Assembly: GCA_016845365.1 (NCBI GenBank)
Contig: JAERST010000024.1
Location: forward strand, 160,461 to 224,460
Direction of reading: 5' to 3'
Length of the DNA: 64,000 nt
DNA from: Methanobacteriota archaeon
GTDB lineage: Archaea; Thermoplasmatota; Poseidoniia; Poseidoniales; Thalassarchaeaceae
Both the position numbers and the translations under genes were made by a program. This document shows positions 9,851 to 49,157 of this stretch, piece by piece. Positions within the stretch are counted from its first letter, which is position 1; the number at the start of each line of letters is the position of its first letter. The notes beneath the pieces are model-generated. The model worked only from the letters and a program-made list of their open reading frames with translations, did not search any database and was not told the origin of the DNA.

Positions 9851-10006
9851 TCGAACTGTCTGAAATTGGGATTCATGTTCGAAGGCGCAGCGCGAATTAA
9901 TTCGCGCAAGCGACCAAGCGACTAGATTCAATCCGTTGTCATGTCGCGTAGTTCTTCAATCAAAATTCAGCGGCCCACCACCGCTTGCATAAGCTGGAAT
10001 CTAAGG

Positions 10007-10084
10007 TGGTGGGTCCGCCAGGATTTGAACCTGGGTCAAATGGTCCCAAACCATCTAGCATAGGCCAGACTAACCCACGGACCC
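10007..10084 (-). tRNA. tRNA-Pro (anticodon UGG), CCA encoded
   Basis: Manual fold of the reverse complement: acceptor GGGUCCG/CGGACCC, T-arm CCAGG-UUCAAAU-CCUGG, anticodon loop UUUGGGA (UGG), discriminator A, genomic CCA. Confidence 0.8.
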
Positions 10085-10122
10085 TGTGAGTGTGCCGGCC
10101 ACCGACGCCCCCCTTATGGATT

Positions 10123-10587: not shown

Positions 10588-10680
10588 GAGGTTGTCTCAT
10601 CGGCGAAGTGTATCTGCGGTCTCGGACTCAGCGAATCTTTGCATGACCAGCCTAATGCGTGGGGTGGACGTCGGGAGAGT

Positions 10681-10962
10681 ATGGCTCAGCCTCGGGTGAT
10701 ACTCGGTTGGTTGGCCTTTGTGGGTTTGATTGCGATGTCGGTCAAGTGCCTGATTCGTGATGGGGCGCTGACACTTGAGGCGTGGACTTACCTGCTGATG
10801 ACTCCACTTGCTTTGGCTCTGGCACTTACACCAGATTCTGTTTGGTCGCGTGAAAGTGACGACCCGGTCGAGCTCTTCGAAGAGGATGAGGAGAGTGAAG
10901 TAGTTGGTACGAAGGAGGCGCCGGATCCTATCGAGGATGGATTCGATGTGCCGGTCCTCTGA
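10681..10962 (+). CDS. Small hypothetical membrane protein with acidic C-terminus
   Basis: Two predicted TM helices after MAQPRVILGWLAF. The start was chosen to avoid overlap with the converging gene. Confidence 0.3.
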   Translation: MAQPRVILGWLAFVGLIAMSVKCLIRDGALTLEAWTYLLMTPLALALALTPDSVWSRESDDPVELFEEDEESEVVGTKEAPDPIEDGFDVPVL

Positions 10963-11013
10963 TTTTTGGCTTCGATCGCCAACTTGCTGAGTCAGCGCTT
11001 GCTGAGTCTGCGC

Positions 11014-33969: not shown

Positions 33970-34931
33970 GCGAAGGGCTCTTCGAAGATTTGGAGGCACT
34001 TCCTCACAACGAAATCGAGGAGGCTTCGGCTGACCTTGAGCGGCAATTGCGCTCCTTTGAGGACGAATTCAAATCTCTACGCGAGGAGCGCAGAACCCAA
34101 GTCGATCTGGTCAAATCTCTGCGCTCAGCAGTCGGAGATATCGAAGAGGCGAGTTCTGAGCGCAAAGCCTTGCTAAACCAATTTCACAAAGTCAAGAAAG
34201 ATGCTGATAAAAATCGCGAAATTCGCGACCGAGTAAATCGCTCGATTCCACCGCCAGCCGCAGTACTCGAGGAATGGCTGGCGGACACCTACACCAAATT
34301 GACAACTATTGACAACGATTTGACAGCGGTTCCAACCCTCAACAGGGAACTCGACTCATTTCGGCGATTCTTCGAGTTGCAAGCCGCTGTCGTGCGCAAG
34401 CGAGAAGCAGAGGATGCGCACGCGGTTTACGTCAAAGAAGTCGATAAATTGCGAAAGATTACCAGTGAACTCGATGCCACTCGTAAATCACAAGAGACCA
34501 GCGCTGAGTCCGCAACCGAAGGAAGCGAACTCAGCACTGACAAGGTTACCCGAAGCGAGATTCGCAAAATCAGCAAAGCGATTAGCGCAATCGACAAGCG
34601 GCTCGATGCGATCAAATCCCAGCGAAAAGACGCACGAAGAGAAGCCGGTCGATTGCGCTCATACCTGAAAATAACCGGAGGACGCGGTTCAAGAATCCGC
34701 ATCGCAGATGTCAAGGATAGGGCGAGCAGCGGCGGTTCTCTGAACGCCAACGAATTGACCGCACTGCTCGACTCTGGAGGCCTCTCAAATCTGACCTCAG
34801 AGAGTAAGAAAGAGAGTGCCGAGCAAGCAGCATCACCCAAGCGAGGTCGCGGTGGTAAGAAGGGAAAGCGAAGACTTGGTGTGACCCGCGGTGGACCAAG
34901 GCGCGGCAACTCGGCCACACGGAGAGAATGA
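33966..34931 (+). CDS. COG1340-like coiled-coil protein with RGG/KKG-type basic tail (paralog 3)
   Basis: Charged coiled coil. Tail PKRGRGGKKGKRRLGVTRGGPRRGNSATRRE is similar to the tail of paralog 1. Start overlaps the stop of paralog 2 (ATGA). Confidence 0.55.
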   Translation: MSEGLFEDLEALPHNEIEEASADLERQLRSFEDEFKSLREERRTQVDLVKSLRSAVGDIEEASSERKALLNQFHKVKKDADKNREIRDRVNRSIPPPAAVLEEWLADTYTKLTTIDNDLTAVPTLNRELDSFRRFFELQAAVVRKREAEDAHAVYVKEVDKLRKITSELDATRKSQETSAESATEGSELSTDKVTRSEIRKISKAISAIDKRLDAIKSQRKDARREAGRLRSYLKITGGRGSRIRIADVKDRASSGGSLNANELTALLDSGGLSNLTSESKKESAEQAASPKRGRGGKKGKRRLGVTRGGPRRGNSATRRE

Positions 34932-34971
34932 GTGGAGAATATCTGCATCTTTGATTCTCCTATGCGCTTAT

Positions 34972-35892
34972 ATGGAAAACTCAGGACGAGAGGCCGCAGG
35001 AGGCGATTACATGGAAATGGAGGGTGCCGAAATTCGCGGACTTCTTCAGCCTCGTTGCGACGATATCCAGGAGCAGATTTCCTTCAATCGCGAGGAGCGC
35101 GATCAATGGAATGCCAAGGTTCGTACTCTCCTAGACGAGAGAAATGAACTCAATCGTCAAGTCAAGGAACTCATCACCGAGGTCCAAAATCAGAAGTCTC
35201 TGCGTGACGAAGCAAATCAAACGGTTCGCGATTTGAAGGACCACCGTGCGGAAAAGACCGAGGAACTCAAAGTCATCCGCACGAATTTCCGTGAGAAACT
35301 TGCTCAGCAGGGCGAGGAAGAAATCCAGCGTGAGAGAAATGACAGGAGTCGCTCTCCGGCACGAATTAAAACCGAGATGGACAAACTCGATCGCCTATAC
35401 CAACATGGTGGAGTTTCACCCAAGAAGGAACGAGAGCATATGATGAAAATGAAGCGGCTCTCACAGGAACTTCGAGAGGCAAAAGAGCGCAAATCAGATG
35501 GTGGCATTCGCGACCTCAAGATGCAATTGAGAGATGCTGAAAAGCAGCAGGAAGAAGCTCACAAGAATGTCAAGAAAGCGGTCTCCAGCGCCCAAGAAGC
35601 CCACGATTTGATGGCTGAACTCTCTGAAGAAGTCGATCGACTTCGCGAGAAAGCAAATTCAGCCCAATCTGGCGTAACCCGCGCAAAGCGCGAAGCCGAT
35701 TCGCTTCACGGACGCTACATCGTCTCGCTACGCTGCATTCACTCGATGCAAGACCTGTTGAAGGCATTGGATGCACGCGAGAAGGGTGGAGGCGATGATG
35801 ATGAGCAGGTTGAAGTCGCTGACTTGATGACTCGATTGATGTCTGGTGACACGCTTTCAACCGACGAAATCATGGCCCTTCAGCGGAATTGA
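34972..35892 (+). CDS. COG1340-like coiled-coil protein (paralog 4; acidic tail)
   Basis: ERDQWNAKVRTLLDERNELNRQVKELITEVQNQKSLRDEANQTVRDLKDHRAEKTEELK is the archetypal COG1340 repeat style. Start ambiguous (34891, 34972 or 35011). Confidence 0.5.
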   Translation: MENSGREAAGGDYMEMEGAEIRGLLQPRCDDIQEQISFNREERDQWNAKVRTLLDERNELNRQVKELITEVQNQKSLRDEANQTVRDLKDHRAEKTEELKVIRTNFREKLAQQGEEEIQRERNDRSRSPARIKTEMDKLDRLYQHGGVSPKKEREHMMKMKRLSQELREAKERKSDGGIRDLKMQLRDAEKQQEEAHKNVKKAVSSAQEAHDLMAELSEEVDRLREKANSAQSGVTRAKREADSLHGRYIVSLRCIHSMQDLLKALDAREKGGGDDDEQVEVADLMTRLMSGDTLSTDEIMALQRN

Positions 35893-36835
35893 TTTCGTAA
35901 GTTCGACCATTTCTCGAATGAAGAATTTCTCGACCTCTGTCGTGGTCGATTATCCAAGCTGGAATCGCTGTCGGCATTTTCTCAAGGACTGCATCATCCG
36001 AGTCAAAGATCCATCGCTCTAGCATCGTACTTCTGACAGTGCTACCTTCCTTGGCTTCCTGTTGTTTTTGTCGTCGAGTTTCGAGAATTCCGACGAGCAT
36101 GGTTCGCAAGTCGTTTTCGGGCAGCCAAGAAGAGGATTCGACCCAAATTAATCTCAGTGAAGGAGTGGTTGCGAGCATATTTGATTCCTCATACATCTCC
36201 AATCTGCCTGCCCAAGGATCCTCCAAAACATTCCACGTTCCGTTCTCCCTAACTCCTTCTGGGCTAACCAAAGACCCCTCGATACGCCATATATTCGCCT
36301 CGAGTAATACCGGCGAGGCTTCGACGAATTCGAGGCCTCGCTGAATCAACCACTCGTCCAAATCGACGAGTGGTTGCAAGACCACTCTCGATACTGGTTG
36401 AGAGTGGTCTTGACCCGCAATTGAATCATCAATTTGATCGGATTCAGGTTGGGTTTGGCGAGGAATTCCCGCTTGCAAGTCTCCTCGAAGAACCGCTTCT
36501 CCAATCCAGCGGCTAAGCGTGTCAGGATTCCACAATTCAAGCCTCAGACGCGAGGCGAGCAATTCGCTGGCCGCTGGTTCGAACTCCCGCTCACTCAGAA
36601 TCCAGTGAGCGCCCGTGGGAGCATCTACCAACCATCGCTCAGCCTCGGCCACACTAATCGGCAATAATCCAGAACTAATGTGCCAAACATGGACTGAGCC
36701 TCCACTTTCATCTTCAAATTCTGGGATGCGTTCGGCCACGCCCAGGCATCGGAAACCGATCGACTGAACGATGCCGCTGGCTTCGATAAGTCGAACACCA
36801 CGGAGATTCAACAGATCCCCGACGAGGTCATCCAT
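35870..36835 (-). CDS. Hypothetical acidic protein occupying the position downstream of rpl30e where nusA normally lies
   Basis: 321-aa ORF in the same orientation as the RNAP operon. No KH domains or other recognisable motifs. Confidence 0.45.
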   Translation of the reverse strand: MDDLVGDLLNLRGVRLIEASGIVQSIGFRCLGVAERIPEFEDESGGSVHVWHISSGLLPISVAEAERWLVDAPTGAHWILSEREFEPAASELLASRLRLELWNPDTLSRWIGEAVLRGDLQAGIPRQTQPESDQIDDSIAGQDHSQPVSRVVLQPLVDLDEWLIQRGLEFVEASPVLLEANIWRIEGSLVSPEGVRENGTWNVLEDPWAGRLEMYEESNMLATTPSLRLIWVESSSWLPENDLRTMLVGILETRRQKQQEAKEGSTVRSTMLERWIFDSDDAVLEKMPTAIPAWIIDHDRGREILHSRNGRTYEINSAEGP

Positions 36836-36926: not shown

Positions 36927-37223
36927 TCAGAGGTTCGAGTTCAGAGTCAACAAGTCTGACTGACCAGGGTCGACGACGCACAGAGCGCTAACCGGGAATG
37001 GCTTTGCACAGGCAGCGCCGAGTTGGCGGTTGACCATTGTTACTCGGTGGACTGGAACATCGGGGTGGCTTGCGGTGAGGTTAGTGACGTAGTCAGTTGG
37101 GCAATTTGCTGCGACGAGAACGAGTCGAGCATCTCCCTTATTGCACGCACTTATTGTCTGACGCTGTCCAAAAAGGACGGTGCCGGTTGTGATTCCTTGC
37201 TTCAATTGTCTTGCCAAATCCAT
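36927..37223 (-). CDS. rpl30e: Ribosomal protein L30e
   Basis: MDLARQLKQGITTGTVLFGQRQTISACNKGDARLVLVAANCP...VPVHRVTMVNRQLGAACAKPF is the L30e/L7Ae fold. Canonical position after rpoA''. Confidence 0.85.
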   Translation of the reverse strand: MDLARQLKQGITTGTVLFGQRQTISACNKGDARLVLVAANCPTDYVTNLTASHPDVPVHRVTMVNRQLGAACAKPFPVSALCVVDPGQSDLLTLNSNL

Positions 37224-37236
37224 TTGAATTCCTCCT

Positions 37237-38823
37237 TCAGGCCTCTGCCTCTTCTGGGATGTAGAATAATTCCACACTTCCAGTTCCGAGCGCGACTGGT
37301 TGACCGACGATGATGTTCTCAGTAACACCACGTAGCTCGTCGCGCTCGCCGATTACACCCGCGCGTAGCAGGTGATTGACTGTGACTTCGAAAGCAGACC
37401 GCGCTAGGATACTGTGCTTGGTTCCGCTGACACCGTGTCGTCCGATAGCTCGGACTTCGCCCTCGCTTGTCATTACATCAGCAACGGTTAGCAAGTGGCG
37501 GACATCGACATCGAGACCGGCTCCTTCCAAGGTATCCTTCATCTCATTGATGATTGCTTGACGAGCGGCCTCGACACCAAGATATCCGTAGATTTCGTTG
37601 ATGTTATTGGTGTAAGTTCGACCGCGGTCGACTCCAGCGAACTCGCTGACCTTAGCTAGGTTGGAACCGATAGTTGCGATGTAATACTCGCCAGTGTCTC
37701 GGTTTGGCCCTTGCACATTCGCACGGACGATGTCTGGAAGACCCTTCAAGCGCAATTTCTTCACCTTGTCCTCAAGTTGTAGGAGCGCAGTGTAGGTTGG
37801 AGGGTCGTTTGCGAGTTCAGCAAGGTCATCTTCCTTGGTAACGCCTGGAATGACCTTGAGCACCTTGGGACGGTCCTCGTCATCCGCTTGGATGTAAAGG
37901 CGGAGAGCGCGCGAAAGCTTGTCGCGGACCTCAGCGCCTGTCATCTTCTTGAGGCGTAGATTTGCTCGGTTCAACTCAAGATTGAGGTGACGCTGAGCAA
38001 CATCGACGTCGATTGAAGCGATATCGCGAGTTGTCGTTGTTTCGAGTGAAGCAGCGATCTCCTGAACCTTCTTCTCCTCGGTGCGCAGAGGCTTGCCCTT
38101 TGCATCGGTCTCTTCGAGGTAGACCTTCATCGTCGGAGTCTTTGGGACCTTTCGCGCGTCTACAATCTCGATTACACGAGGTAGACCCTGAGTAACGTTG
38201 ACCGTTGCCACACCAGCATAGTGGAAAGTACGCATGGTCATCTGAGTTCCAGGTTCTCCGATCGATTGAGCGGTGGTGATTCCAACTGCTTCGTGTGGGT
38301 CGACGCGTGAGTAAGTCATGTCAGCAGCGGCGCAGCTGACGACTTTTCGGGCCTCGGCTGCGGTTAGCTTCTTCTTTCCACGGGAGAGCAATCCTTCGAC
38401 GAGGTCGTTGATTGTCTTCGGTGAAATTCTGACGTTCTCTGATACAGCTGCATCCGAGAGACTGATGAACATCGGATTGTGGATGTCGAGGTCGCGGTGG
38501 ATTTGCACCATCTTGTCCTCAGCATCGTATGCCTGTAGAGGCAAGATGCTCTTGGTTCGGCGGCGTGAAGCGGTTGAGCGCTGGCGTCGAATCATTGTCT
38601 TCTCGGCTTTCTTCTCCTTCTGAGCAGCCTTCGTCGATCCTTGGATGACTTCGGTGATGTTCTGAGCCATTCCCGAATCTGTCGCACAGATTTGAGCGAT
38701 CTCGCCCGCTGCGAGAATCTTGACGTCATCCCACTTTCGGTCATCGGCAAGTCGGTGAGCGAATTCCTCAGCGATGCCCAAATCCATGAGCTTCTTCTTG
38801 GTTGCACTCTTGACTACCATCAC
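37237..38823 (-). CDS. rpoA2: DNA-directed RNA polymerase subunit A'' carrying a ~125-aa N-terminal extension (HhH-like domain plus basic linker)
   Basis: The core carries [22 protein letters not shown] and the conserved C-terminal half. The N-terminal [42 protein letters not shown] region is homologous to the rpoH N-terminus. Start overlaps the rpoA1 stop (ATGA). Confidence 0.9.
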
Positions 38824-41800
38824 TCATCACCCCCTAGAGCGTCATCGAGAACCTTGGTGATGTCGAATGGTAGACCCTTGCGGCTTCGCGCTGGGTCGAT
38901 TCCGTCCTCACCATACTCGAATTGGATGATGCGGTCTGCGGTATTGCGGACCGAGCCATTGCCGTCGTCTGAGACCTTTAGGTCGTCCATTGCGTTGATC
39001 AGACGGCGCTGCATGTATCCCGACTTCGAAGTACGAACCGCTGTATCGACCAGCGACTCACGTCCGGAGACTGAGAGCATGAAGAACTCGGTCGGTTCTA
39101 GTCCCTTCTTGAAGGAGGAAGCGACGAATCCCTTCTCCTCAGCACCCTTTACTCCGCGAGGGAAGTGAGAAAGAACGCGGTCTTGGTAACCGCGTTCGAG
39201 GCGCTTTCCACGAACCTTTGGTTGACCGATTGAACCTGCCATCATCGCGAGGTTATCCATCGAACCACGGGCACCAGAGGTCGCCATGATAACGGCCGAG
39301 TTATCGTCTCCGAGGTATGACTTAGCCACATTTCCGGACTCGGCCTTGGCCGAGTCTAGAATCTGCAGGATGTTCTCCTCGAGGGTTTCTTGTGGGGTTC
39401 GTCCCGGACGAGTTTCGTAGCGTCGTCCGTCATTACCGAACTTTGCTAGTTCTGCATCTACCTCTTGGCTGGCTCGAGCGTTGATCTCAACAATCTCTGC
39501 CTTAGCAGCGAGAGGCAAGTCCTCGTCATCGATTCCTGTTGTGAATCCGCTCGAGGTGCAGATAGCGATGGTCATCTTCGTCATGCGGTTCAGGAATTCT
39601 GCACCTTGGTCTGTGCCGTGAGTCTGGACAACTGCGTCTAGTAGACGGCCGTCCTCAGCTCCGATTCCTCTCTTGTCAATGGTGCCGCTAACTGCGCCAC
39701 CCGATGTGACCTTGACTTCGTCGCCGCTTCGGCTAGTGTATTGCAACTTGAAGCCGGCTGGGACGATTAGGCTGAGAAGGTCGCTGCCGCGGAATCCAAC
39801 GACTCCGTCCTTGCTTGTGACCTCGTCAGGTAGTTCTCCATCCCATCCGACTGAACCCAGAATTTCCATTGCTAGGGCCGTTGGTAGAACACGCTCGCCG
39901 TGAGTCAAAAGGTAGGCTCCTGAGATGTGGTCGTGGATTCCGCCGATGACAGATCCTCCGTATCGCGGTGTGATGATGTGCTCTTGCACGCGCATCAGAA
40001 TCTTGGCTTCAGCGCGTGCTTCTTCGGATTGAATGACGTGAAGGTTCATCTCGTCTCCGTCGAAGTCAGCGTTGTAAGGAGTACAATCTGCTAGATTGAA
40101 GCGGAATGTCTTGCCGGGCATAACGCGGACTTCGTGAACCAACATCGACATGCGGTGAAGCGAAGGTTGTCGGTTGAAGATAGCAACATCACCATCGATT
40201 AGGTGACGCTCGACGATTACACCTGGGCGAGGGTTTCCGTCTCGATCGTATGTCGAAAGGCGGTCCTCAACCTCAGTTCGGTAGGTCTCGCCGTACTCAT
40301 CCTCAATGGACGGACTACCACAGTGAGGGCAGTTCACCTCAAGGTGTTCTGGCAGGTACTCGTCAGGGTTGTTCTGCTCCCAAACCCATCGGTTGTGGAT
40401 GACAGCTCGTGGGTCATCCTCCGCTAGAGGTCGACCGTTCTCATCCTCTCCACGTAGGTTAGCGAGAGTAGTGTCGAGGTCGACCGACCAAACGTCTTCC
40501 AACTCACCCATTGCTGTTCGGCGCATCTGCTTCTTCAGTTCAAGGCCGGGTAGGAAGTTAGGTGCTGGAAGCACCGTGTTTAGGTCAGGGCGGTAGCCAG
40601 CGTATGGTTCGTCATCGCTGCCCGCGTGACACTCAGCATTGAGGCAGCGGAAACCGGCCCAGATGTACTTCGTGCGGTCGGTGATACGAACGCGGAAGTT
40701 GTCTCCACGGATGATGTAGTTAACACCAGGGTGGACGTCTGGTCCGCGTAGAATCATGCGGCGAAGTTGTTCACGGTTCCTGCTAGTAGCGCGGATTGGA
40801 ACCGTGAGTTCCTTTGCAGTTTGTACAGGTACTCCGACCTCGTTGATTCCGAGGTTCGGGTCGGGACTAATCACGGTTCGAGCGCAGAAGTTAACGCGCT
40901 TTCCGGAAAGGTTGCTGCGGAAGCGACCCTCCTTACCCTTGAGACGCTGTGAGAGCGTCTTCAACGGGCGACCAGAGCGGTGTCGAGCAGGTGGGATTCC
41001 GCTCGTCTGATTGTCGAAGTAAGTCGTGACGTGGTACTGCAATAGTTCCCACAAGTCTTCGACGATAAGTTGCGGAGCACCTGCGTCGCGGTTCTCGCGA
41101 AGACGCTGGTTGATTCGAAGTACATCGACCAACTTGTGGGTCAAATCGTCTTCGGATCGGTCGCCACTATCGAGGGTAATCGAAGGGCGAACGGTGATCG
41201 GCGGAACTGGTAGAACCTTCATGATCGACCATTCTGGGCGGCTTGAAGCCGAATCCATTCCGAGGAAAATTAGGTGCTGGTCTGGAATCTTCTCCAACCA
41301 TTCGCGGATATCACGAGCGTTGAGCTTGTGCTCACCCTTGTCAGCCTTCTTTTCCTTGAAGGTGGTTGGCTTGTCGAGCATGATCTTGCCTTGCTCTGAA
41401 CCGCAGTGCATGCAGATTGCACGCTTTGCGCTCGAACATTCCTTCTCGATTTCCTTGATGATCTTCTTGAATTCCGTCGAGCCGACGCCGTGCTTGCGCA
41501 TAACATCGTGAACTCGGTCGCGGTAGTAATCCTGCTCGGACTTCTCTGGGTCCAGAGGGTGGGTGTCGGAGGCACTGTGTAGGAGAATCTGGCTGCACTC
41601 GTTGCAGGTAGACTTCAGTGAGGTCTTGATTAGCGCAGTGAATCCAATGTGCATCACAGGCAATTCAAGGGCGATGTGACCGAAGTGACTCGGGCACTCA
41701 TCGTGCTTGTTTCCGCAGGTTTCACAGCGAATTCCGGGGTCGATAACTCCCATCTTCGGGTCCATCAGACCCTGCTTGTAGGCGTGACCATCGTCCTTGT

Positions 41801-41918
41801 AGGTGTCAGCAGTCTTGACTTCGACAGCGGACATCTTGCGGATCTCGTTTGGATCCATTAGGCTGAATTTGATCGAATCGATCCGCTTTGGGATCTTGGC
41901 TACTCCGCGGGCGCTCAT
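38820..41918 (-). CDS. rpoA1: DNA-directed RNA polymerase subunit A' (1032 aa; contains a ~140-aa lineage-specific insertion)
   Basis: Zinc-binding [27 protein letters not shown] catalytic loop, and [13 protein letters not shown]. The insertion lies between YIIRGDNF and VERHLIDGD (approx. aa 423-565). Confidence 0.95.
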
Positions 41919-44900
41919 CTTTGGTCCTCCAGCTCAAGTCTCATGGCAACTCCAAGACTCTTCATTTCGTCCAGAAGCAATTTGAAAGCGTAGGAAGTTT
42001 GCACCGAATGCACATCTGCTCGGTCACCACAAACTGGGCACACCGGAGTGCGCCTCTTCCAATCATAGTAAGCGATGTGGCCGCAACCACTGTTGTTACA
42101 GACCATGAGCGGCCAGCCGTCAGACTCGTCCAAGAGACGGTCCTTGATGACCATCGAGGCTCCGTGCGCGATCAAACAATCACGCTCCATCTCACCGAAT
42201 CGCAGACCACCCTGTCGCGCACGACCCTCCGTTGGTTGGCGGGTCAGAATTTGCACGCGACCGCGGCTGCGGGCGTGCAACTTGCTGCTCACCAGGTGGT
42301 GCAATCGCTGGTAGAAGATGACTCCAGTGAAGATTTCAGCTTGGAATGCTTCACCGGTCTCACCGCTAATCATTCCCTCGCGACCGGTGTGGGCGAAGCC
42401 GTTGCGTAGTAGACCAGAGCGAAGCGAATCTTCCTTCTCTCCGCTGAAAGCGGTTCCGTCAATCTTGCGTCCTTCCATCGCTCCGACCTTGCCGCCAATC
42501 ATTTCGAGAACGTGGGCGACGGTCATTCGCGATGGAATCGCGTGTGGGTTGATGATTAGGTCAGGTACTACACCGTCGACGGTGAAAGGCATGTCCTTCT
42601 CGTCGACGAGGCGACCGATGACTCCCTTCTGACCGTGGCGGCTGGCGAACTTGTCGCCGAGTTCTGGAATCTTCTCTGTGCGCAGAGTGATGCGGCAGAG
42701 TAGACCGGAATCGAGGGACTCGGTGACGTAGACATTGTCGACCCAGCCGGCCTCTCCATTTCGAACCATCATCGAAGACTCACGGCGCTCCTGAGCTTGC
42801 AAGAAGTGGCCGTGTGATTCCTCGAGGAAGCGCGGTGGGCTGGTCTTGCCGACTAGTACGCTGGTGTCTCCACCGACGCTTGAGAGGTAGGTCTCAGGTG
42901 TTGGCAGACCATCGCGCTCGAGGTGAGTATAACTCTCCCATGACTTCAGGCCCTTGATTTCGTCAAGGCCTGTGCCTGGGATTTCGATGCGCTCCTCCTG
43001 TCCACCAGGGAAGCGCTTGTTCTCTGCGTTGTAAGTACGGATGAAGGAGGAGCGGGCGAGCGAGCGCTCGACTGCTGCGCGGTTCATGATGACCGCGTCC
43101 TGCATATTGTACCCGTGGTGGCTGAGGATAGCTACTACGAAATTCTGGCCACCAGGGCGCTGTGCGAAGTTCGTCGTCTTCATCGAGCGAGTGCCGACGA
43201 TCGACTGCTGAGGGTAATGCATCACGTGCATGCGTGTGTCCGGGCGCAGTCGGTAATTGGCGGAAGGTAGGCCGAGACTCTGCTTGACCATCGCTGTTCC
43301 ACCAGTAACTCTCGGAGTTGAGTTGTGCTCAGGGTATGGAACCAAGGAAGCACAAACTCCCAGAATCAACTGAGGGTCGATTTCCACGTGCGTGTATACG
43401 AGAATTGTGTTCTGCCTCTTCTGCTTGCGCTTTAGACTGTCAAGGTCCTCTTGGTGATACTTCAATGGGACCTTGAACTCCTCAATCACGGCCTCGCCGT
43501 TTGGCAAATTGACTTCGACCTTGAGATGAGCCTCAGTAATCTGCTCTTCACCCAAGTTGACCCAGTCAACCTTTGCAGGATTGATCGGTCGGTTGTGCTT
43601 AGGCGAATATGGCGGTAGGTCGAATGGACGAGGAGCGATTAGGAGATCCTCTTCTTCCTCAGCGTCGACCCATTCAACGACTCCTTGTGAGACAAGGTCG
43701 TTGAATGTCCACTCTCCAGAGCGCACCGATTCGAGGTGCTGTGCGGAGAGCTTCAAGTCGCCATCTTCGAGGACGAGGAGTGGTCGTAGGATTCGTCCGC
43801 GGTCGGTGTTGATGAAGATATCACGGTTTGCCGAATCGTGGCGAATGCTGACCTCAGGTCGGATTCTGCCTTGGCGGCGGCGGCGCTTGAATTGACTTAC
43901 CAACTTAGCCGCATTCTTGTGAAGTCCGAAGATATCTCCGTTAACGTGGACGCGAGAGCCTTCTGCCCATCCCGATGGGGATGAGTCGACGCCAGCCTCG
44001 CGTAGCAATTCCTTGACGTCTCCTTCGTGGACTTCTTCTGATACGTCGATCATCTGAGCGGCGTTCTTCACTAGTCCACAATTCTGACCTTCAGGAGTCT
44101 CGTTCGGGCACAGTCGACCCCACTGAGTTGGGTGAAGGTCACGAGCCTCGAAGTGAGGTTGACTGCGGACTAGTGGACTGGTCACGCGTCGCATGTGAGA
44201 GAGGGCTGCGAGGTAGGTGGTTCGGTCGAGCAGTTGGCTGACTCCACTGCGTCCGCCGACCCAGTTTCCTGTTGCAAGCGCGTGCATGATTTTCTGAGTT
44301 AGAACGTCAGGGCGAAGGCAAGCGGTGATGCGTAGTTCGCGCTTGCGGTTGTGGTGTCGCTCGAGTTGGTACTTTAGGTCACGAGCGAGTTGTTGTAGAC
44401 TGACTCGGAAGAGGTCCTCGACTAGATCTCCGGCTAGACGGACACGCTTGTTTGCGTAGTGGTCCTTGTCGTTAGGGTCACGGTCAGTGATTGCCATCTC
44501 GAGAACTTGGCGGACGATTCTTCCGAGGAAGATTGCCTTCTTCTCACGGTGCTCCGGAGCTGAGCCAAGGTGAGGGAGAAGTTCCTTGTCGAGGAGATTT
44601 TGGATGCGGGCCTCACGGTACTCTTTCTGCTGGCCCGCAGCGAACTTCTTCTCAAGCCACTGAAGTGCTTCTTCAGAGGTTTCGACATTGTATTCCTCGT
44701 TGTCCTTGACATCGTTTAGGTTAGCAACAGTGTACTTCATCGCCTCTGCAGGTCCAGCGATTGCAGTGAAAATCTCCTTGTCGTTCTCCATACCAAGAGA
44801 GCGCATTAGAAGAACGACTGGAATCGGAGTTGTTCCAGCGCTTGGAATCTTGACCATGAGCATTCCATCACGGCGCTTCTCGATGTTCAGTGGCTTGCGC

Positions 44901-45601
44901 ACACCGTCCTTCTGCGAGAAAATCTTGGCGACTTCTGTCTCGTGAGCGTACTTCTTGTTCTTCTCAACAGTAACTCGGTTTGGAGCGAGGTCTTCCATCG
45001 AGATGAGAACTCGCTCAGTTCCGTTGATGATGAAGTAGCCACCAGGGTCGAGAGGGTCTTCACCGGCGCGGCGAAGCAACTCTGTCAATCGGTCAGCGTC
45101 TTCCGCTGAGGACTGAGGTGTTAGTTTGCGGTCAGCGTCGCCGCAGAGGTGAGAAATGTGATTGGCGTGCAGATTGCACTGGCCTGAGCGGACCATAATC
45201 GGAAGGTTTCCGATGTGGACGCGCTCCTCGATATCCGGAGTTGGCTTGTCGTCGCGGATAATCTTGAAGTCCAAGTGGACTGGTGAGAAATAAGTGAGCT
45301 TTCGAAGGCGACACTCGAGTGGAGTCGCTGGGTGTTCTGCTCCATTGGCCTCCTTGATGGTTGGGCGGCCGAGGTGAATATTCTTCATTCGAATGATGAT
45401 TTCTTTGTCGAGAACGTCGAGTTTGATGATTCCACCATCATCGTCTTCGACGGGCTCGTCGGTTCCGATGCGGATGTTGCGGACGATCTTCTCCATCCGG
45501 CTGAGGTTCCCATCGGTGGATGGGATACAATCGTTATACGATGCAAGTTGGTGATTTACCAGGCTTCTTTGTTGAAAGTAACTCTCTACGATTTCCTTCA
45601 T
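41915..45601 (-). CDS. rpoB: DNA-directed RNA polymerase subunit B, unsplit (1228 aa)
   Basis: Full-length Rpb2 homolog (GDKFASRHGQKGV, C-terminal zinc ribbon CNNSGCGHIAYYDWKRRTPVCPVCG). B' and B'' are fused, as in Thermoplasmata/Crenarchaeota. Confidence 0.95.
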   Translation of the reverse strand: MKEIVESYFQQRSLVNHQLASYNDCIPSTDGNLSRMEKIVRNIRIGTDEPVEDDDGGIIKLDVLDKEIIIRMKNIHLGRPTIKEANGAEHPATPLECRLRKLTYFSPVHLDFKIIRDDKPTPDIEERVHIGNLPIMVRSGQCNLHANHISHLCGDADRKLTPQSSAEDADRLTELLRRAGEDPLDPGGYFIINGTERVLISMEDLAPNRVTVEKNKKYAHETEVAKIFSQKDGVRKPLNIEKRRDGMLMVKIPSAGTTPIPVVLLMRSLGMENDKEIFTAIAGPAEAMKYTVANLNDVKDNEEYNVETSEEALQWLEKKFAAGQQKEYREARIQNLLDKELLPHLGSAPEHREKKAIFLGRIVRQVLEMAITDRDPNDKDHYANKRVRLAGDLVEDLFRVSLQQLARDLKYQLERHHNRKRELRITACLRPDVLTQKIMHALATGNWVGGRSGVSQLLDRTTYLAALSHMRRVTSPLVRSQPHFEARDLHPTQWGRLCPNETPEGQNCGLVKNAAQMIDVSEEVHEGDVKELLREAGVDSSPSGWAEGSRVHVNGDIFGLHKNAAKLVSQFKRRRRQGRIRPEVSIRHDSANRDIFINTDRGRILRPLLVLEDGDLKLSAQHLESVRSGEWTFNDLVSQGVVEWVDAEEEEDLLIAPRPFDLPPYSPKHNRPINPAKVDWVNLGEEQITEAHLKVEVNLPNGEAVIEEFKVPLKYHQEDLDSLKRKQKRQNTILVYTHVEIDPQLILGVCASLVPYPEHNSTPRVTGGTAMVKQSLGLPSANYRLRPDTRMHVMHYPQQSIVGTRSMKTTNFAQRPGGQNFVVAILSHHGYNMQDAVIMNRAAVERSLARSSFIRTYNAENKRFPGGQEERIEIPGTGLDEIKGLKSWESYTHLERDGLPTPETYLSSVGGDTSVLVGKTSPPRFLEESHGHFLQAQERRESSMMVRNGEAGWVDNVYVTESLDSGLLCRITLRTEKIPELGDKFASRHGQKGVIGRLVDEKDMPFTVDGVVPDLIINPHAIPSRMTVAHVLEMIGGKVGAMEGRKIDGTAFSGEKEDSLRSGLLRNGFAHTGREGMISGETGEAFQAEIFTGVIFYQRLHHLVSSKLHARSRGRVQILTRQPTEGRARQGGLRFGEMERDCLIAHGASMVIKDRLLDESDGWPLMVCNNSGCGHIAYYDWKRRTPVCPVCGDRADVHSVQTSYAFKLLLDEMKSLGVAMRLELEDQR

Positions 45602-45613
45602 GATACCAACTCC

Positions 45614-46201
45614 TCAAGCGCTCTCCACTATCAATCGGTAAGCGGTGCTCGACCCAGCAGCTCTGCTGTATCGTACGACTCGAACGACCCTATTGGTCAA
45701 CCATCCAGCAGGAAGGTCGTCGGCTTCTGCCTCGACCTGCTCCTTGATCGCTTGGACCGCAGGGTCGGTGATGAGAATCTTGGGTAGTAATTCCTTGGCG
45801 ATACGAGTGCCGCCTTCATCGTCTGGGACTTCGAGGCCCCATGGGGCAAGAGATGATGCTTCGGAATCAACATCGACCAACTCATGGTGAGGGACCAAGA
45901 TGTGGTTGAGGACGTTGAATCGGTCATCGCCTTGAGGAATGTCATCGAGCTCAAGGGCCTTTCGTGAAATCGTGATTCGGCCTGAGCGGCTTCGGCGACG
46001 GGAAGTGTTGTGTTCCCTGATGATTGACATGATACTCTCGAGTGTTGCATCACTGCTTGAGAGGCCGGTCTTCTCTGCGACCTCTTCGACTGTCATTCTC
46101 TTGATTGCATCCATATTTGCGTCGTCGGCGAGCTTGTGAGCATGCTCCGTTGCAATACCCAACTCGACGAGACGCTTCTTGGTTGAACTCTTCACTGCCA
46201 T
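45614..46201 (-). CDS. rpoH: DNA-directed RNA polymerase subunit H (Rpb5 C-domain homolog) with ~90-aa N-terminal HhH-like extension
   Basis: The C-terminal FNVLNHILVPHHELV...ITDPAVQAIK...VVRVVRYSRAAGSSTAYRLIV is the RpoH fold. The N-terminal MAVKSSTKKRLVELGIATEHAHKLADD is homologous to the rpoA2 N-terminus. Lies upstream of rpoB as in the canonical operon. Confidence 0.8.
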   Translation of the reverse strand: MAVKSSTKKRLVELGIATEHAHKLADDANMDAIKRMTVEEVAEKTGLSSSDATLESIMSIIREHNTSRRRSRSGRITISRKALELDDIPQGDDRFNVLNHILVPHHELVDVDSEASSLAPWGLEVPDDEGGTRIAKELLPKILITDPAVQAIKEQVEAEADDLPAGWLTNRVVRVVRYSRAAGSSTAYRLIVESA

Positions 46202-46252
46202 TTTGCGCCGCCCCCGGACCCAGAAAAACCGCAAGCCTGCGGCTTAGTCAGG

Positions 46253-46326
46253 CGGGCCTGGAGGGATTCGAACCCCCGGCCACCGGATTAAAAGCCCGGC
46301 GCTCTACCTGACTAAGCTACAGGCCC
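46253..46326 (-). tRNA. tRNA-Lys (anticodon UUU)
   Basis: Manual fold of the reverse complement: acceptor GGGCCUG/CAGGCCC, T-arm GGGGG-UUCGAAU-CCCUC, anticodon stem CCGGG/UCCGG with loop CUUUUAA. Lies immediately upstream of rpoH. Confidence 0.8.
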
Positions 46327-46491: not shown

Positions 46492-47868
46492 ATGGGATTT
46501 GACGAAATCGAAAGAGAGGTTGAGTTCTCAGCCACCTCCAATAGTCGATTGGTCCAATTCGAAATCGCTGCCGACAAATCGGTTGAGTTAATCGTTCCAC
46601 CAACGGTTTACCCCCCACGCCGAGATACGAAATTGATGTTGGCCGCACTTGGCAAATTGACTTGCGAACCGGGCCACTTAGTTGAGATTGGAACCGGCTC
46701 GGGAGCCATCGCAATCGCGATGGCGAAACGAGGCTGGGATGTCTCAGCCTTTGACGTCAATCCCCTCGCTGTCGCAGCAGCCCGTGGCAATGCGGAGCAG
46801 CAGGGTGTGAGTGAACGGATCACAGTGGAGGAGGGTGGTGTAGGCGAAGAGAGGTGGGCAATTCCACGAGAGGCTGAACTCGTCATCTGGAACTTACCAT
46901 ACCTCGAACCTGCTCTTGGCGATGAATCTCCGCTGGGTCCGATGGAGGAGGCAGCCCTTGGCGACGAGATAGGCTCGAATTGGTCGCTAAGTTTGCTGAA
47001 CTCGATTGACGCGCGACAATTCGACTCGAGGTTATTCGTTCTGCTTTTCCGCATCGACCCTACCAGCCCTAGTCGGCCCCGAGATTGGATTGAAGCTGGC
47101 TGGGCTTCTCGGTCGCTGGCGAAAGAGAGAATTGGAGACGATACCCTCGAAGCCGTTGCCTTTTGGAGACCAGATTCCGGGCGGCCTGCGCTATTCATCG
47201 AAGAGTGTGAATCGACGATGGATGCCGCACGAAATCTCTCTGGCGAAGGTTGGTTGAGAGTTCGTGCGGGATTCCAATCCGCAGGCCGAGGTCGCCGCGA
47301 TTCAACATGGGCCTCTAACGCAGAAGATATGACCGCGACCTGGAGCCTTGATGCGAGCGTTCTCGAACGTCATCCGCCCGGCTTGCTGCAGACCGCGGTG
47401 GGAGCCAGAATTGCCGACATTCTCGGAATGCAAATGAAGTGGCCAAATGACTTGCTTATCGAGCGGCGAAAGGCTGGCGGAATTCTGGTCGAATCTAGTT
47501 CGTTAGATGGAAGAGTAAGAATTGGCGTTGGACTAAATCGTAACCCTGGGGAATTGGAATCTGAAGCAACCGCAGGCTGGTCAGAAACTATTGGTGAAGT
47601 AGAGGCCAGCGAGGTCTTTGCTCAGATAGATTCCTCGATGGCCTCTCTCTTCGATCCATCACCACCAATCCCTCAGTCGAAATCGTCCGATTTGTGCCGA
47701 GATTCATGGCGGGTGATGGCCCAATCTATCTCGCGAGGAATTGTCTGCGCGCGAGGAGATAATCCTGTGCAAATCGTTGGATTGCAAGAGACCGGAACGT
47801 TGCGCTTGATCGAGAGTGAGCATCTGCTCGACCTCGATGAGGTCGGAAGCGTAGTCATCTCTTTCTGA
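46492..47868 (+). CDS. birA: Fusion protein: HemK/Mtq2-like SAM-dependent methyltransferase (N-terminal) + biotin--protein ligase BirA catalytic domain (C-terminal)
   Basis: N-terminal EIGTGSGAIAIAMAKRGWDVSAFDVNPLAVAAAR (SAM motif I) and NLPYLE (NPPY-like motif IV). C-terminal GRGRRDSTW (BPL GRGRxGRxW motif) and KWPNDLLIERRKAGGILVE. Confidence 0.75.
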   Translation: MGFDEIEREVEFSATSNSRLVQFEIAADKSVELIVPPTVYPPRRDTKLMLAALGKLTCEPGHLVEIGTGSGAIAIAMAKRGWDVSAFDVNPLAVAAARGNAEQQGVSERITVEEGGVGEERWAIPREAELVIWNLPYLEPALGDESPLGPMEEAALGDEIGSNWSLSLLNSIDARQFDSRLFVLLFRIDPTSPSRPRDWIEAGWASRSLAKERIGDDTLEAVAFWRPDSGRPALFIEECESTMDAARNLSGEGWLRVRAGFQSAGRGRRDSTWASNAEDMTATWSLDASVLERHPPGLLQTAVGARIADILGMQMKWPNDLLIERRKAGGILVESSSLDGRVRIGVGLNRNPGELESEATAGWSETIGEVEASEVFAQIDSSMASLFDPSPPIPQSKSSDLCRDSWRVMAQSISRGIVCARGDNPVQIVGLQETGTLRLIESEHLLDLDEVGSVVISF

Positions 47869-48251: not shown

Positions 48252-49157
48252 TCAAAGCCCGCTGACAACGGCAACGAGCCTCAATCTACCGACCATTTCA
48301 TCGCTCGCTCGCGCGCCTAGAATTACTTGGCAGTCGGGATGAAGGCTGCTGACTAGAGATTCGCTCAATAAATTGAGATGGGCCAAGGTCATATCGGGTC
48401 CGCCCTCGACTTGAATTAGACAACCCCTCGCTCCAGAGACATCGATTTCTGCAAGTGGTGAGCGTCGAGCCACCTCAACCACTCCGGATGGATCCACAAC
48501 AGTCCCTGTCCCTACGATCAAAGTGGCTTCACCGGAATGCTCCACAACAGTTCGTAAATCCATCAGATCAAGATTCAATTTACCTACCTTCGCGAGGGTC
48601 GTTACCAGACCCTCGACCAAGTCTTGAATCCAGCCCGAGCCTTGCTGCCAATCAGCATCTCTGGCTCGGGCGTACCAAGCCAATCTTTCCATGCTTACGC
48701 GTATGCAGACATGAGATTGCTCCTCTAATGCTGGTAGCGCCGCATTGGCGATCGCACAGCGCAGCGGTTGTTCGGCAAATGGTAGACCAGCGATGCTGAG
48801 GACGAGGCAGTTACGGGCGCGTGCTAGGCGTGCTAATTCGTTAGCCGCGCCAGAGCCGGTGCCCCCGCCCAAGCCTGCCATGATGAAGACTAATTCGGCC
48901 TTTTCCAAGAGCGGGTCGAGCGAATGCAAACCCTCACTCAATCGGTGGGCGGCAAGTGTCGGTAAAGCGGCGGCACCGCTACCATCTCCAACCGCGTCGA
49001 GGTGCAGACAATGAGCTTGCCCAGAACCACGAAATGAAGATTCATCTGCATCGATAAGGAGAAGGTCGGCGAGCCCATCGCACTCGCGATGTGCGGCGTC
49101 GGCCCAGATGCAGCCGAGCCCTCCAACTCCCGCAATCAGTATCGCGCCCTCGTGCAC
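48252..49157 (-). CDS. Divergent short FtsZ/tubulin-family GTPase (301 aa; altered T1 loop, no C-terminal tail)
   Basis: FtsZ motifs present: IAGVGGLGCIW (T1-like, degenerate), GLGGGTGSGAANELARLAR (T4 GGGTGSG), LNLDLMDLRTV (T7-like). Confidence 0.7.
   Translation of the reverse strand: MHEGAILIAGVGGLGCIWADAAHRECDGLADLLLIDADESSFRGSGQAHCLHLDAVGDGSGAAALPTLAAHRLSEGLHSLDPLLEKAELVFIMAGLGGGTGSGAANELARLARARNCLVLSIAGLPFAEQPLRCAIANAALPALEEQSHVCIRVSMERLAWYARARDADWQQGSGWIQDLVEGLVTTLAKVGKLNLDLMDLRTVVEHSGEATLIVGTGTVVDPSGVVEVARRSPLAEIDVSGARGCLIQVEGGPDMTLAHLNLLSESLVSSLHPDCQVILGARASDEMVGRLRLVAVVSGL

Follow-up and report, generated by a model that had tools for sequence, protein, structure and literature searches.

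Related helical head domains on basic tethers at the N-termini of RNA polymerase subunits A'' and H of Poseidoniales, and their relatives on virus-like contigs

The jaw of eukaryotic Rpb5 (RNA_pol_Rpb5_N) is an additional domain that comes before the conserved Rpb5/H assembly domain in the chain and lies on the lower jaw of the polymerase, near downstream DNA. It provides a precedent for a lower-jaw site that tolerates and uses an added module (PMC2675907, PMC2847245). Crenarchaeal Rpo13 is a lineage-specific small helical element with a highly basic tail, which docks beside Rpo5/H on its N-terminal side and extends into the channel by which DNA enters (PMC2675907). It is a separate polypeptide with a helix-turn-helix and is limited to Sulfolobales and Desulfurococcales. 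In bacteria, the C-terminal domains of the two alpha subunits (alpha-CTD) offer DNA and regulators a platform on which to dock, and the association of NusA AR2 with alpha-CTD is a pairing of two such domains. Archaeal RpoH has been described as lacking an N-terminal extension.

The locus analysed here lies in a 64,000-nt stretch of a Thalassarchaeaceae genome (the window), in which subunits H and A'' both begin with a 63-residue bundle of predicted (HhH)2/SAM-like fold (HhH, helix-hairpin-helix) on a basic tether, predicted to be disordered in H. As in Rpb5, the extra domain of H precedes the assembly domain. The head shows no sequence or fold match to the Rpb5 jaw, however: Pfam gives no match to RNA_pol_Rpb5_N at E ≤ 1, and no Rpb5 chain is among the structural matches listed. 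The head is, moreover, also found on A''. Rpo13, set beside the head by description, is the closest match in position and in its logic of helices plus a basic tail, but the Poseidoniales element is fused to H and A'', has another predicted fold and occurs in two copies. Its resemblance to alpha-CTD and NusA AR2 lies in two small HhH-type helical domains per enzyme on linkers that are flexible or, for the heads, predicted to be so. Whereas alpha-CTD sits at the C-terminus of alpha, the homologue of D/Rpo3, the heads form the N-terminal ends of H and A''. No alpha-CTD is among the top structural matches listed, nor does it have sequence similarity to the heads. On this comparison the resemblance is taken as convergent in logic, an analogy rather than membership.

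All features located below are on the minus strand. The first gene of the rpoH-B-A'-A'' operon, rpoH (RNA polymerase subunit H/Rpo5; 45614..46201, 195 aa, ATG at 46201), begins 49 nt downstream of a tRNA-Lys(UUU) gene (46251..46326, ARAGORN), which is its nearest 5' neighbour and limits the upstream reach of its start. The N-terminal module of H comprises residues 1-65 (46007..46201), with a predicted five-helix head as in A'', and is followed by a basic, predicted-disordered linker at residues 66-94 (45920..46006), which includes SRRRSRSGRITISRK. Residues 95-195 (45617..45919) form the assembly domain, homologous to the C-terminal domain of Rpb5; it exceeds the Pfam profile (73 positions) by about 25 residues. 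Together with the gene order, this domain identifies the protein as H/Rpo5: Pfam Rpb5_C (PF01191) matches residues 95-191 with E 3e-11 (43.3 bits, cutoff 23.5), and NCBIfam PRK09570 (80 positions) matches with E 4.5e-12, confined to the region of residues 94/95-193. The insertion and the extension bring the PRK09570 score, 45.6 bits, below its cutoff of 83.

The gene for subunit A''/Rpo1C, rpoA'' (37237..38820, 527 aa, within an open reading frame at 37237..38823), ends in a stop codon at 37237-37239 and probably starts at the ATG at 38820. It follows rpoA' (38820..41918, 1032 aa), assigned by size and gene order, whose TGA stop (38820-38822) has one base in common with the ATG of A'' (TGATG). 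A Shine-Dalgarno-like GGGGGTG (38828..38834) is found 8-14 nt 5' of that ATG, within the last codons of rpoA'. The module occupies A'' residues 1-63 (38632..38820) and is a predicted five-helix (HhH)2/SAM-like head; a Lys/Arg-rich linker spans residues 64-92 (38545..38631). The canonical core, residues 138-527 (37240..38409), corresponds to TIGR02389 model positions 6-365, with E 2e-125 over residues 138-520, and to Pfam RNA_pol_Rpb1_5 with E 2e-48. Against the 367-position TIGR02389 equivalog the protein scores 418.5 bits, marginally under the cutoff of 420.65; its identity as A'' is established by this match, by the trigger-loop motif, including GEPGTQMT, at residues 184-195, and by its place after rpoA'. 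An earlier note, made from the sequence of the window, had put the A'' start about 125 aa ahead of the usual N-terminus, the trigger-loop motif near residue 185, and the length of RpoH at about 195 aa instead of about 80. All three readings hold, with an A'' extension of about 130 aa, a motif that begins at residue 184 and family matches that cover only residues 94/95-193 of H. Its further remark that both genes overlap the stop codon of the preceding gene is true of A'' and not of rpoH, which has the tRNA upstream.

Both extensions are, to judge from codon-level patterns, translated and under strong purifying selection. Across 149 A'' and 37 H DNA versions, synonymous sites vary freely at invariant residues, which rules out an RNA- or DNA-level cause of the N-terminal conservation. 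A GG[A/G]GGTG element is nearly invariant 8-14 nt 5' of the A'' ATG among 136 distinct upstream sequences, and this invariance extends to the third positions of two Gly codons. The A'' reading frame runs unbroken from module into core in 78 of 81 species genomes, and most of the 81 species loci have a TGATG or TAATG junction between A' and A''. Residues 1-10 are conserved as strongly as the trigger loop, and K4, S5, T7, K8, K9, H22, D26, D27, K29, W30, D31 and K34 are near-invariant surface residues across one order and in viral copies; conservation of residues 1-9 and 27-35 is inflated because the loci were found by peptide patterns from those stretches. Were the true starts at internal Met residues, the in-frame sequence ahead of them would go untranslated or would belong to a small gene of its own. 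Gene callers do sometimes begin RpoH at Met12 (205-aa versions P0376 and P0387), and many database entries are shortened fragments. The fragments, however, have out-of-frame tails and so appear to stem from low-quality assemblies with frameshifts, and fixed amino acids beside variable synonymous sites, a properly spaced Shine-Dalgarno sequence, overlapping A' stop and A'' start codons, the continuous frame and a confident fold prediction for the domain all speak for the extended starts proposed in the earlier note. An annotation artefact is thus effectively refuted already and retains almost no probability.

The two N-termini are clearly related. Pairwise BLASTP aligns them with 23 of 43 residues identical (E 2e-13), and six-frame tblastn of the whole window recovers no copies other than this pair (an alignment of 81 aa at 36% identity, E 1e-12), the next match having E 0.3. 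A profile-profile alignment of 42 A'' with 9 H extensions (hhalign) gives a probability of 99.7% and E 1.7e-25, pairing A'' residues 1-63 with H residues 1-65; the alignment of the two extensions proposed earlier is thereby borne out. These sequence comparisons trace the H and A'' heads, about 63 residues each, to the ancient duplication of a single domain. Heads of the A'' type and of the H type form distinct lineages, both conserved. Homology of the two basic linkers was considered and rejected: their similarity is compositional and not demonstrably homologous, because the hhalign alignment extends no further than the end of the fifth helix.

Orthologous rpoH and rpoA2 in related genomes carry the same pair, with both modules present in 33 of 33 loci having sufficient upstream sequence, from both families of Poseidoniales (Marine Group II archaea). 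Species-representative genomes hold at least 539 relatives, and the titles of the best 80 of these loci read Poseidoniales, Thalassarchaeaceae, Poseidoniaceae or a generic archaeal MAG. The best 120 of 980 RpoH homologues are 166-203 aa long, nearly all 195-196 aa, and RpoH of Poseidoniaceae is 216 aa, with the module present. No description of such RNAP subunit extensions was found in the searched literature, in agreement with the earlier statement that paired extensions are not a described feature of archaeal RNAP. An order-wide paired head domain on two RNAP subunits thus appears to be undescribed.

Two independent AlphaFold2 models agree in topology. In A'' residues 1-68, helices are predicted at 6-13, 18-24, 30-34, 38-45 and 49-67 (pLDDT 81.5), and in full-length H the head has helices at 3-13, 18-25, 30-34, 38-45 and 52-67 (pLDDT about 83). 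The models have the five-helix (HhH)2 architecture of two HhH units and a connector helix, and superpose on solved (HhH)2 domains, with Foldseek TM scores of 0.6-0.74 to the HhH domains of FANCM, Hef, XPF and RadA; they also have the five-helix fold of SAM domains. The best structural matches include solved structures of NusA C-terminal repeats, and SAM and NusA AR domains, which bind proteins, score at least as well as DNA binders. The earlier comparison with NusA repeats is thus upheld; alpha-CTD, also named there, is absent from the matches listed. Membership in the (HhH)2 group is argued from fold alone, because the Pfam HHH, HHH_5 and RpoA-CTD profiles give no match. At E ≤ 1, Pfam recognised only Rpb1_5 and Rpb5_C in the two full-length proteins, with no HHH, HHH_5, RpoA-CTD or SAM; an NCBIfam scan gave no match within either extension, and a profile search of all PDB sequences with the extension reached a best E of 1.5. 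These searches rule out the extensions as members of a known sequence family. A BFVD structure search with the head returned nothing significant.

The hairpins are degenerate. Hairpin 1 reads L-G-I-A, with G15 in at least 90% of sequences, the second Gly replaced and D/E in the flanks; an A at +6 after G15 gives G-I-A-x-x-x-A, near the G-h-G-x-x-x-A consensus. At hairpin 2, A'' has A-T-D-S-G and H has G-L-S-S-S-D, both without G-h-G. Identity to the (HhH)2 domains of XPF/ERCC1, Hef, FANCM/FAAP24 and Topoisomerase V is 11-18%, and the head differs from these in having no HHH profile match, a net acidity and a hairpin 2 without G-h-G. It differs from SAM domains, which are mostly eukaryotic, in that no profile matches and hairpin 1 retains an HhH-like L-G-I-A-x-x-x-A. 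The earlier description as HhH-like is supported for the predicted five-helix fold.

Charge is divided between head and tether. Residues 1-12 of the head carry +4 and residues 13-62 about -6, for a net of -2 to -3 overall. Helix 1 is basic and invariant, an observation that counts against a docking-only reading of the head. As the earlier note had pointed out, each head is followed by a basic stretch. In the window its net charge is +10 in A'' (residues 63-92) and +7 in H (residues 65-82). Among A'' orthologues (n=41) the median is +6 over residues 63-100, and the A'' linker keeps its basic composition at low sequence conservation (0.4-0.55). The H linker is predicted to be disordered (pLDDT 30-35 over residues 67-103; pTM 0.38 for full-length H in AlphaFold2). 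The view of the head as a nucleic-acid-binding module, taken in the earlier note, fares poorly here: residues 13-62 are acidic, hairpin 1 is flanked by D/E and hairpin 2 lacks G-h-G. This net acidity and the degenerate hairpins make it doubtful that the head binds DNA in the classic HhH manner; the charge pattern is indirect evidence against it. The basic tether is the likelier nucleic-acid contact, and the head resembles the acidic, protein-binding NusA repeats more than DNA-binding (HhH)2 domains.

A search for the module among 1.84 billion cluster representatives yielded only 206 matches. In 65 of these the head is joined to a non-RNAP tail; the tails fall into 33 clusters, 14 of them with at least two members. 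At least 14 families of proteins that are otherwise unrelated, encoded on contigs resembling viruses or mobile elements, thus start with the head, which occurs there in A''-like and in H-like form. Long head-bearing contigs of 61-160 kb (ENA ERZ26859011 ctg146141, ERZ25069810 ctg136785 and ERZ25073868 ctg76028) encode PCNA, ribonucleotide reductase, ERCC4, a Mom-like protein and three methyltransferase genes, the rest being mostly ORFans. Smaller, syntenic head-bearing contigs carry PrimPol, TFB and a Holliday-junction-resolvase-like gene. One carrier consists of the module and a single TFIIB cyclin repeat without a Zn ribbon, others look DNA-related (an AAA/SMC-like ATPase, Zn-ribbon proteins), and metagenomic protein P0295 has two modules in tandem. 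Chimeric assembly was rejected as the source of these copies: the families have several members at 40-50% identity, all of which keep the head, and the heads are unlike any A'' or H sequence and recur on independent long contigs.

The head-bearing non-RNAP contigs are probably viral. Their status is only probable because searches of IMG/VR, GenBank phages, PHROGs and Pfam gave no confirmation. IMG/VR gave no confirmed match to the module profile, to a degenerate DNA pattern encoding MVVKSATKK[KR]L or to the 330-aa viral family, and tblastn of GenBank phages with the module, P0286 and P0325 found no real match. Neither a capsid gene nor a terminase gene is present in the contig pieces examined. 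For the TFB and PCNA encoded there, the only matches are distant genes of haloviruses and Sulfolobus viruses, and PHROGs and Pfam leave most neighbouring ORFs without assignment. Solely from the module, we infer that the hosts are Poseidoniales.

The N-terminus of A'' is placed relative to H from Pol II domain maps (Rpb1 foot/cleft and the Rpb5 assembly domain within the 'shelf' module), which presumably apply here. H and A'' together make the polymerase lower jaw beside downstream DNA (PMC2847245, PMC2675907 and PMC13257274), and both appendages would therefore leave the same face of the enzyme. The reading we favour, tentatively and at somewhat less than an even chance, is a two-part device on this lower jaw. 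The basic tethers would lie on or near downstream duplex DNA, at a site likened to that of the basic tail of crenarchaeal Rpo13 or of the eukaryotic Rpb5 jaw, and the acidic heads would be flexibly tethered protein-docking domains. Their docking logic would be analogous to that of the two alpha-CTDs of bacterial RNAP, of NusA AR2-alpha-CTD and of XPF-ERCC1 (HhH)2 pairs. The heads may bind one another and/or a conserved partner, and the viruses that infect these archaea seem to have acquired copies of the head, by which viral proteins may reach the same partner or the polymerase itself. It is possible, if rather unlikely, that the A'' and H heads form an 'RNA polymerase handle': they would pair homo- or heterotypically, in (HhH)2/SAM fashion, into a lower-jaw platform, and viruses would have copied both versions repeatedly onto at least 14 effector families, plugging viral proteins into host transcription. 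If true, this would be a modular virus-host tag system with effectors that include a TFB-like protein without Zn ribbon; we have seen no system of this type described for any cellular RNA polymerase.

The (HhH)2 fold is common to the true DNA binders XPF, Topo V, RuvA and RadA, so that DNA binding by the head is possible. The heads would then be classic nucleic-acid-binding modules whose hairpins grip the backbone of duplex DNA, downstream or upstream, non-specifically, with the linker adding affinity. Such heads could lend the enzyme more grip or processivity, perhaps salt tolerance, and the viral heads would be a generic DNA-targeting domain; Topo V HhH repeats fused to DNA polymerases by Pavlov et al. 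in 2002 reportedly gave higher processivity and salt resistance. The fold does resemble the DNA-binding domains of Topo V, XPF, FANCM, RadA, UvrC and LigA, and G15 with its near-consensus surroundings, the basic helix 1, the strongly basic linker, the DNA-related viral carriers (AAA/SMC-like ATPase, TFIIB-repeat protein, Zn-ribbon proteins) and the proximity of H and A'' to downstream DNA (PMC2847245) point the same way. We nevertheless find this explanation doubtful: the head is net acidic, D/E/S rather than K/R surround both hairpins, hairpin 2 has lost G-h-G, HHH-family profiles do not match, and protein-binding SAM and NusA AR domains match structurally as well or better. Surface residues that are near-invariant across the order and in viral copies would, moreover, be unusual for non-specific backbone contact.

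A purely internal role in assembly is improbable. Here the A'' and H heads would heterodimerise to strap the lower-jaw subunits together or regulate jaw/clamp motion, with no external partner, and viral copies would be competitive inhibitors or hitch-hikers on the head dimer. The (HhH)2 domains of XPF, ERCC1, Hef, FANCM and FAAP24 are dimerisation modules and are among the best structural matches; the two copies per enzyme always occur together (33 of 33 loci) as distinct, conserved lineages, and P0295 bears modules in tandem. Disordered tethers of about 35 residues or more would, however, be needless for subunits already touching in the core enzyme, and at least 14 viral families with the head are left unexplained unless it also gives access to RNAP, in which case this explanation merges with that of docking heads. 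The earlier note had also linked the heads to a loss of nusA. The gene is indeed missing from its canonical position downstream of rpoA''-rpl30e: it does not adjoin L30e, the nine kb downstream contain a 321-aa ORF, a DUF7121 ORF and unrelated genes, and none of ten other suitably sized ORFs in the window is NusA. The link to the heads is a positional coincidence only. That heads and basic linkers serve as an RNA-handling substitute, touching nascent RNA or recruiting termination/antitermination factors, is very unlikely, even with bacterial NusA C-terminal repeats among the closest folds. To our knowledge archaeal NusA consists of KH domains only, without AR repeats, and the head therefore resembles a part that archaeal NusA never had. 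H and the A'' N-terminus are, moreover, at the DNA-entry side, distant from the RNA exit (PMC2847245 and PMC2675907).

Poseidoniales rank with the most abundant archaea in surface waters of the ocean. As no member has ever been cultured, what is known of their transcription machinery comes from sequence alone. The paired heads would be a third, independent elaboration of the polymerase DNA-entry side, after the Rpb5 jaw in eukaryotes and Rpo13 in Crenarchaeota, and two tethered heads would parallel the bacterial alpha-CTD arrangement. Heads on virus-like genomes provide a testable lead to the means by which uncultured viruses of marine archaea may act on the transcription of their hosts, and a sequence marker ending ...DDRKWDDVK could tie uncharacterised viral contigs to Poseidoniales hosts.

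Throughout the Poseidoniales, subunits H (Rpo5) and A'' (Rpo1C) of the RNA polymerase (RNAP) share an N-terminal (HhH)2/SAM-like head that has been duplicated, is translated and strongly constrained, and is attached by a basic tether; many proteins of virus-like elements bear this head too. In the window, whose proteins and loci have named relatives in Candidatus Poseidoniales (Marine Group II), here Thalassarchaeaceae, the archaeal RNA polymerase operon region lies on the minus strand. It comprises tRNA-Lys (46251-46326), rpoH (45614-46201, 195 aa), an unsplit rpoB (41915-45601; one 1228-aa ORF with no B'/B'' division), rpoA' (38820-41918), rpoA'' (37237-38820, 527 aa) and rpl30e (~37226 down to 36927). 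The rpoH stop (45614) is separated by 13 nt from the rpoB ATG (45601), which overlaps neither rpoH nor the tRNA.

The canonical A'' model TIGR02389 (367 positions) begins to match at residue 138 of 527, and canonical H models (~73-80 positions) are confined to residues 94/95-193 of 195. Both proteins thus bear long N-terminal extensions, as the earlier note had proposed. Its alignment of the two extensions is also borne out, both by BLASTP (23/43 identities, E 2e-13) and by comparing a profile of 42 A'' extensions with one of 9 H extensions (probability 99.7%, E 1.7e-25). The latter alignment spans A'' residues 1-63 and H residues 1-65; the homology is that of one whole domain, ending there. 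A search of all six reading frames across the 64-kb window finds two copies only (81 residues, 36% identity, E 1e-12), with the next-best match at E 0.3. A basic stretch does follow each head, but the likeness of these two Arg/Lys-rich tethers is compositional only.

In 149 distinct A'' DNA versions and 37 of H, codon choice is free at many positions whose residue never changes (V2, V3, L11, H22, L24, A25, R28 and V33 among them); Leu is written with up to six codons and Arg with up to five. This pattern shows that selection acts on the protein rather than on DNA or RNA. The A'' ATG and the A' stop have one base in common (TGATG), and TGATG/TAATG is the dominant A'-A'' junction among 81 species loci. 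Located 8-14 nt upstream of the A'' ATG, GG[A/G]GGTG hardly varies among 136 distinct upstream sequences, down to the third positions of two A' Gly codons, and therefore represents a conserved Shine-Dalgarno sequence. Between module and A'' core, the reading frame is uninterrupted in 78/81 species-representative genomes (median length 525 aa). A G-rich Shine-Dalgarno-like stretch precedes rpoH in 26/35 cases, and its start cannot move much upstream because tRNA-Lys ends 49 nt before the ATG. An overlap with the preceding stop codon, previously ascribed to both genes, thus holds for A'' but not for rpoH.

A species-level scan (one genome per species) recovered at least 539 relatives; the best 80 of these are all A'' loci, labelled Poseidoniales, Thalassarchaeaceae, Poseidoniaceae or generic archaeal MAG only. 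The module is also present on Poseidoniaceae RpoH (216 aa, a length reached through two further insertions). All 33 loci of the metagenome scan that extend 7.7 kb or more upstream of A'' have an H-module gene, 7.37-7.52 kb upstream of A''. The heads fall into two distinct conserved lineages, an A'' type (KKKLMDLG...DDRKWDDVK) and an H type (KKRL.ELG...D.NM.DIK), so the duplication is older than the split of the two Poseidoniales families. Column identity in 41 non-redundant A'' sequences is 1.0 for residues 1-10, 0.91 for residues 21-30, 1.0 for the trigger loop and 0.4-0.55 for the linker, values that are inflated for residues 1-9 and 27-35 since peptide patterns drawn from these residues served to find the loci; a pattern-free HMMER search likewise shows A'' and H sequences to be nearly invariant.

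Some gene callers begin RpoH at the internal Met12 (window 46168; 'MELGV...', 205 aa; database proteins P0376 and P0387), so that the invariant first 11 residues are lost, and automatic annotation often labels RpoH 'hypothetical' because it scores only 45.6 bits with NCBIfam PRK09570 against a cutoff of 83. Many A'' entries are frameshift-truncated fragments (80-250 aa) on long MAG contigs. The H assembly domain (window 45617-45919) has ~25 residues beyond the 73-position Pfam profile, which is spanned by residues 95-191.

The transcription-translation gene cluster is interrupted at rpl30e in the window. The genes that usually follow are nusA-rps12-rps7; here a 321-aa ORF (35870-36835, minus) without a Pfam or NCBIfam match sits directly after rpl30e, in agreement with the noted absence of nusA from its canonical position, and is followed by a convergent ORF (34891-35892, plus) with a weak DUF7121 (coiled-coil) match. 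A mechanical rpl30e ORF (36927-37331, minus, GTG at 37331) covers the last 95 nt of rpoA''; the L30e profile matches only from its residue 36, so the true start is probably ~37226, directly past the A'' stop. Upstream of tRNA-Lys and rpoH, a divergent 458-aa ORF (46492-47868, plus) unusually fuses a PrmA/MTS-type methyltransferase domain (residues 46-137) to a biotin/lipoate protein ligase domain (residues 262-337). An FtsZ homologue (Tubulin and FtsZ_C domains; 48252-49157, minus) lies ~2 kb from the rpo operon, beside a 139-aa ORF that matches no family.

An exhaustive HMMER search of 1.84 billion cluster representatives, with the module as profile and E <= 1e-3 as cutoff, yielded only 206 proteins. 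The A'' and H matches include many fragments, and 65 of the 206 have tails unrelated to RNA polymerase, forming 33 clusters (14 with at least two representatives). Nearly all of these carriers open with the same sequence from residue 1, in A''-like and H-like versions, the marker in at least 14 unrelated families being [15 protein letters not shown]...DDRKWDDVK or its H-like counterpart. They include a 1292-aa protein, families of ~330, 290, 210 and 150-190 aa, Zn-ribbon proteins and an AAA_15/AAA_21 ATPase; one family member derives from a Tara size fraction of 0.1-0.22 um. Module-bearing genes lie, in the coordinates of their own loci, at 10001-10483 and 10534-11007 in both L172 and L173, and at L174 10001-10564, L081 1884-5762, L082 4519-5532, L092 3570-4574, L089 1012-3567 and L086 2244-3098. 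The Zn ribbon normally docks TFB on RNAP; P0299 (L084 314-895) joins the module to a single TFIIB cyclin repeat without this ribbon, and P0295 has two modules in tandem. Both lie on very short contigs, making this evidence thin.

On contigs of 61, 156 and 160 kb (GC 39-41%), genes are densely packed and nearly all lie on the same strand, and two head-bearing genes adjoin each other. The contigs encode PCNA, ribonucleotide reductase, an ERCC4 nuclease, a Mom-like gene, a ParA-like ATPase and three N6/N4 methyltransferases, the other genes being mostly ORFans. Two syntenic 8-11 kb contigs encode PrimPol, a full TFB and a Holliday-junction-resolvase-like nuclease. TFB and PCNA are encoded by published Poseidoniales viruses, the Aoguangviridae (PMC10768690). 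As none of the head-bearing contigs or proteins is present in IMG/VR or the GenBank phage set, and the 20-kb pieces examined have no capsid or terminase gene, their viral or mobile nature is only probable; their host is inferred from the module alone.

AlphaFold2 (33-sequence alignment of both families) predicts helices at 6-13, 18-24, 30-34, 38-45 and 49-67 (mean pLDDT 81.5). A separate model of full-length H has the same head (pLDDT ~83), a linker at 67-103 with pLDDT 30-35 and an assembly domain with pLDDT ~75; the low linker values and a pTM of 0.38 predict a head on a flexible tether. Fold matches include SAM domains (8.4-7.5), Topoisomerase V (HhH)2 repeats, XPF and NusA (4mtn; 7.8 each), FANCM (7.7), Hef (6.8) and E. 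coli NusA AR2 and AR1 (7.4 and 7.2), the last two bearing out the suggested likeness to NusA C-terminal repeats. Foldseek concurs (TM 0.6-0.74, probability up to 1.0), with E-values only 0.25 or higher. Pfam and NCBIfam scans of the extensions found no family, and the best profile match among PDB sequences had an E of 1.5. The predicted fold, with its recognisable first hairpin (L-G-I-A-x-x-x-A), therefore supports an HhH-like reading at that level, but the extensions are members of no curated sequence family.

Such a fold could suggest classic DNA binding by the heads. Their charge pattern, equal in both subunits and all orthologues checked, makes this rather unlikely: residues 1-12 carry +4, the rest about -6 and the whole head a net -2 to -3, while the tether carries +6 to +10. 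Hairpin 1 is flanked by acidic D13, E18 and E19, and hairpin 2 has no G-h-G. Conserved polar or charged residues include K4, S5, T7, K8, K9, H22, D26, D27, K29, W30, D31 and K34, position 30 being W in A'' and M in H. In these respects the heads are closer to acidic NusA AR repeats and SAM domains, both of which bind proteins, than to (HhH)2 domains of the basic kind that clamps DNA. Of the nucleic-acid-binding module proposed earlier, the basic disordered tether is the more plausible nucleic-acid contact. An RNA-handling or NusA-like role is very improbable. That the extensions are an annotation artefact is hardly credible given their codon variation and conserved A'' start.

On the Pol II domain map, the counterpart of the A'' N-terminus is presumably the end of the Rpb1 foot region; this region and the Rpb5 assembly domain belong to the same Pol II 'shelf' module. 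Rpb5/Rpo5 touches the C-terminal portion of the largest subunit at many points (PMC13257274). A purely internal strap between A'' and H is distinctly improbable. A passage in PMC2847245 has H and A'' jointly forming the lower jaw, adjoining downstream DNA. Archaeal Rpo5 lacks the Rpb5 jaw domain (~130 residues), which leaves a positively charged groove where crenarchaeal Rpo13, a helix-turn-helix with a highly basic tail into the DNA entry channel, docks (PMC2675907). The reading tentatively preferred, at somewhat short of an even chance, is that at the lower jaw the tethers would contact downstream DNA and be functional analogues of the Rpo13 tail or Rpb5 jaw. In this reading the heads would dock proteins, following the logic of the two bacterial alpha-CTDs and of (HhH)2-(HhH)2 pairs (NusA AR2-alpha-CTD, XPF-ERCC1), and viral copies of the heads may serve to engage the same partner, or else the polymerase directly.

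Full-text literature searches found such A''/H extensions nowhere described, consistent with the earlier view of a module on two subunits as undescribed for archaeal RNAP. A 2026 survey of lineage-specific domains of small archaeal RNAP subunits mentions neither Poseidoniales nor Rpo5 extensions (PMC13257274), and a passage of a 2014 paper presents archaeal RpoH as free of N-terminal extensions (PMC3906176). The fold itself and the idea of lineage-specific RNAP appendages are already known; what is surprising is the paired arrangement on H and A'' and the presence of copies on virus-like elements.
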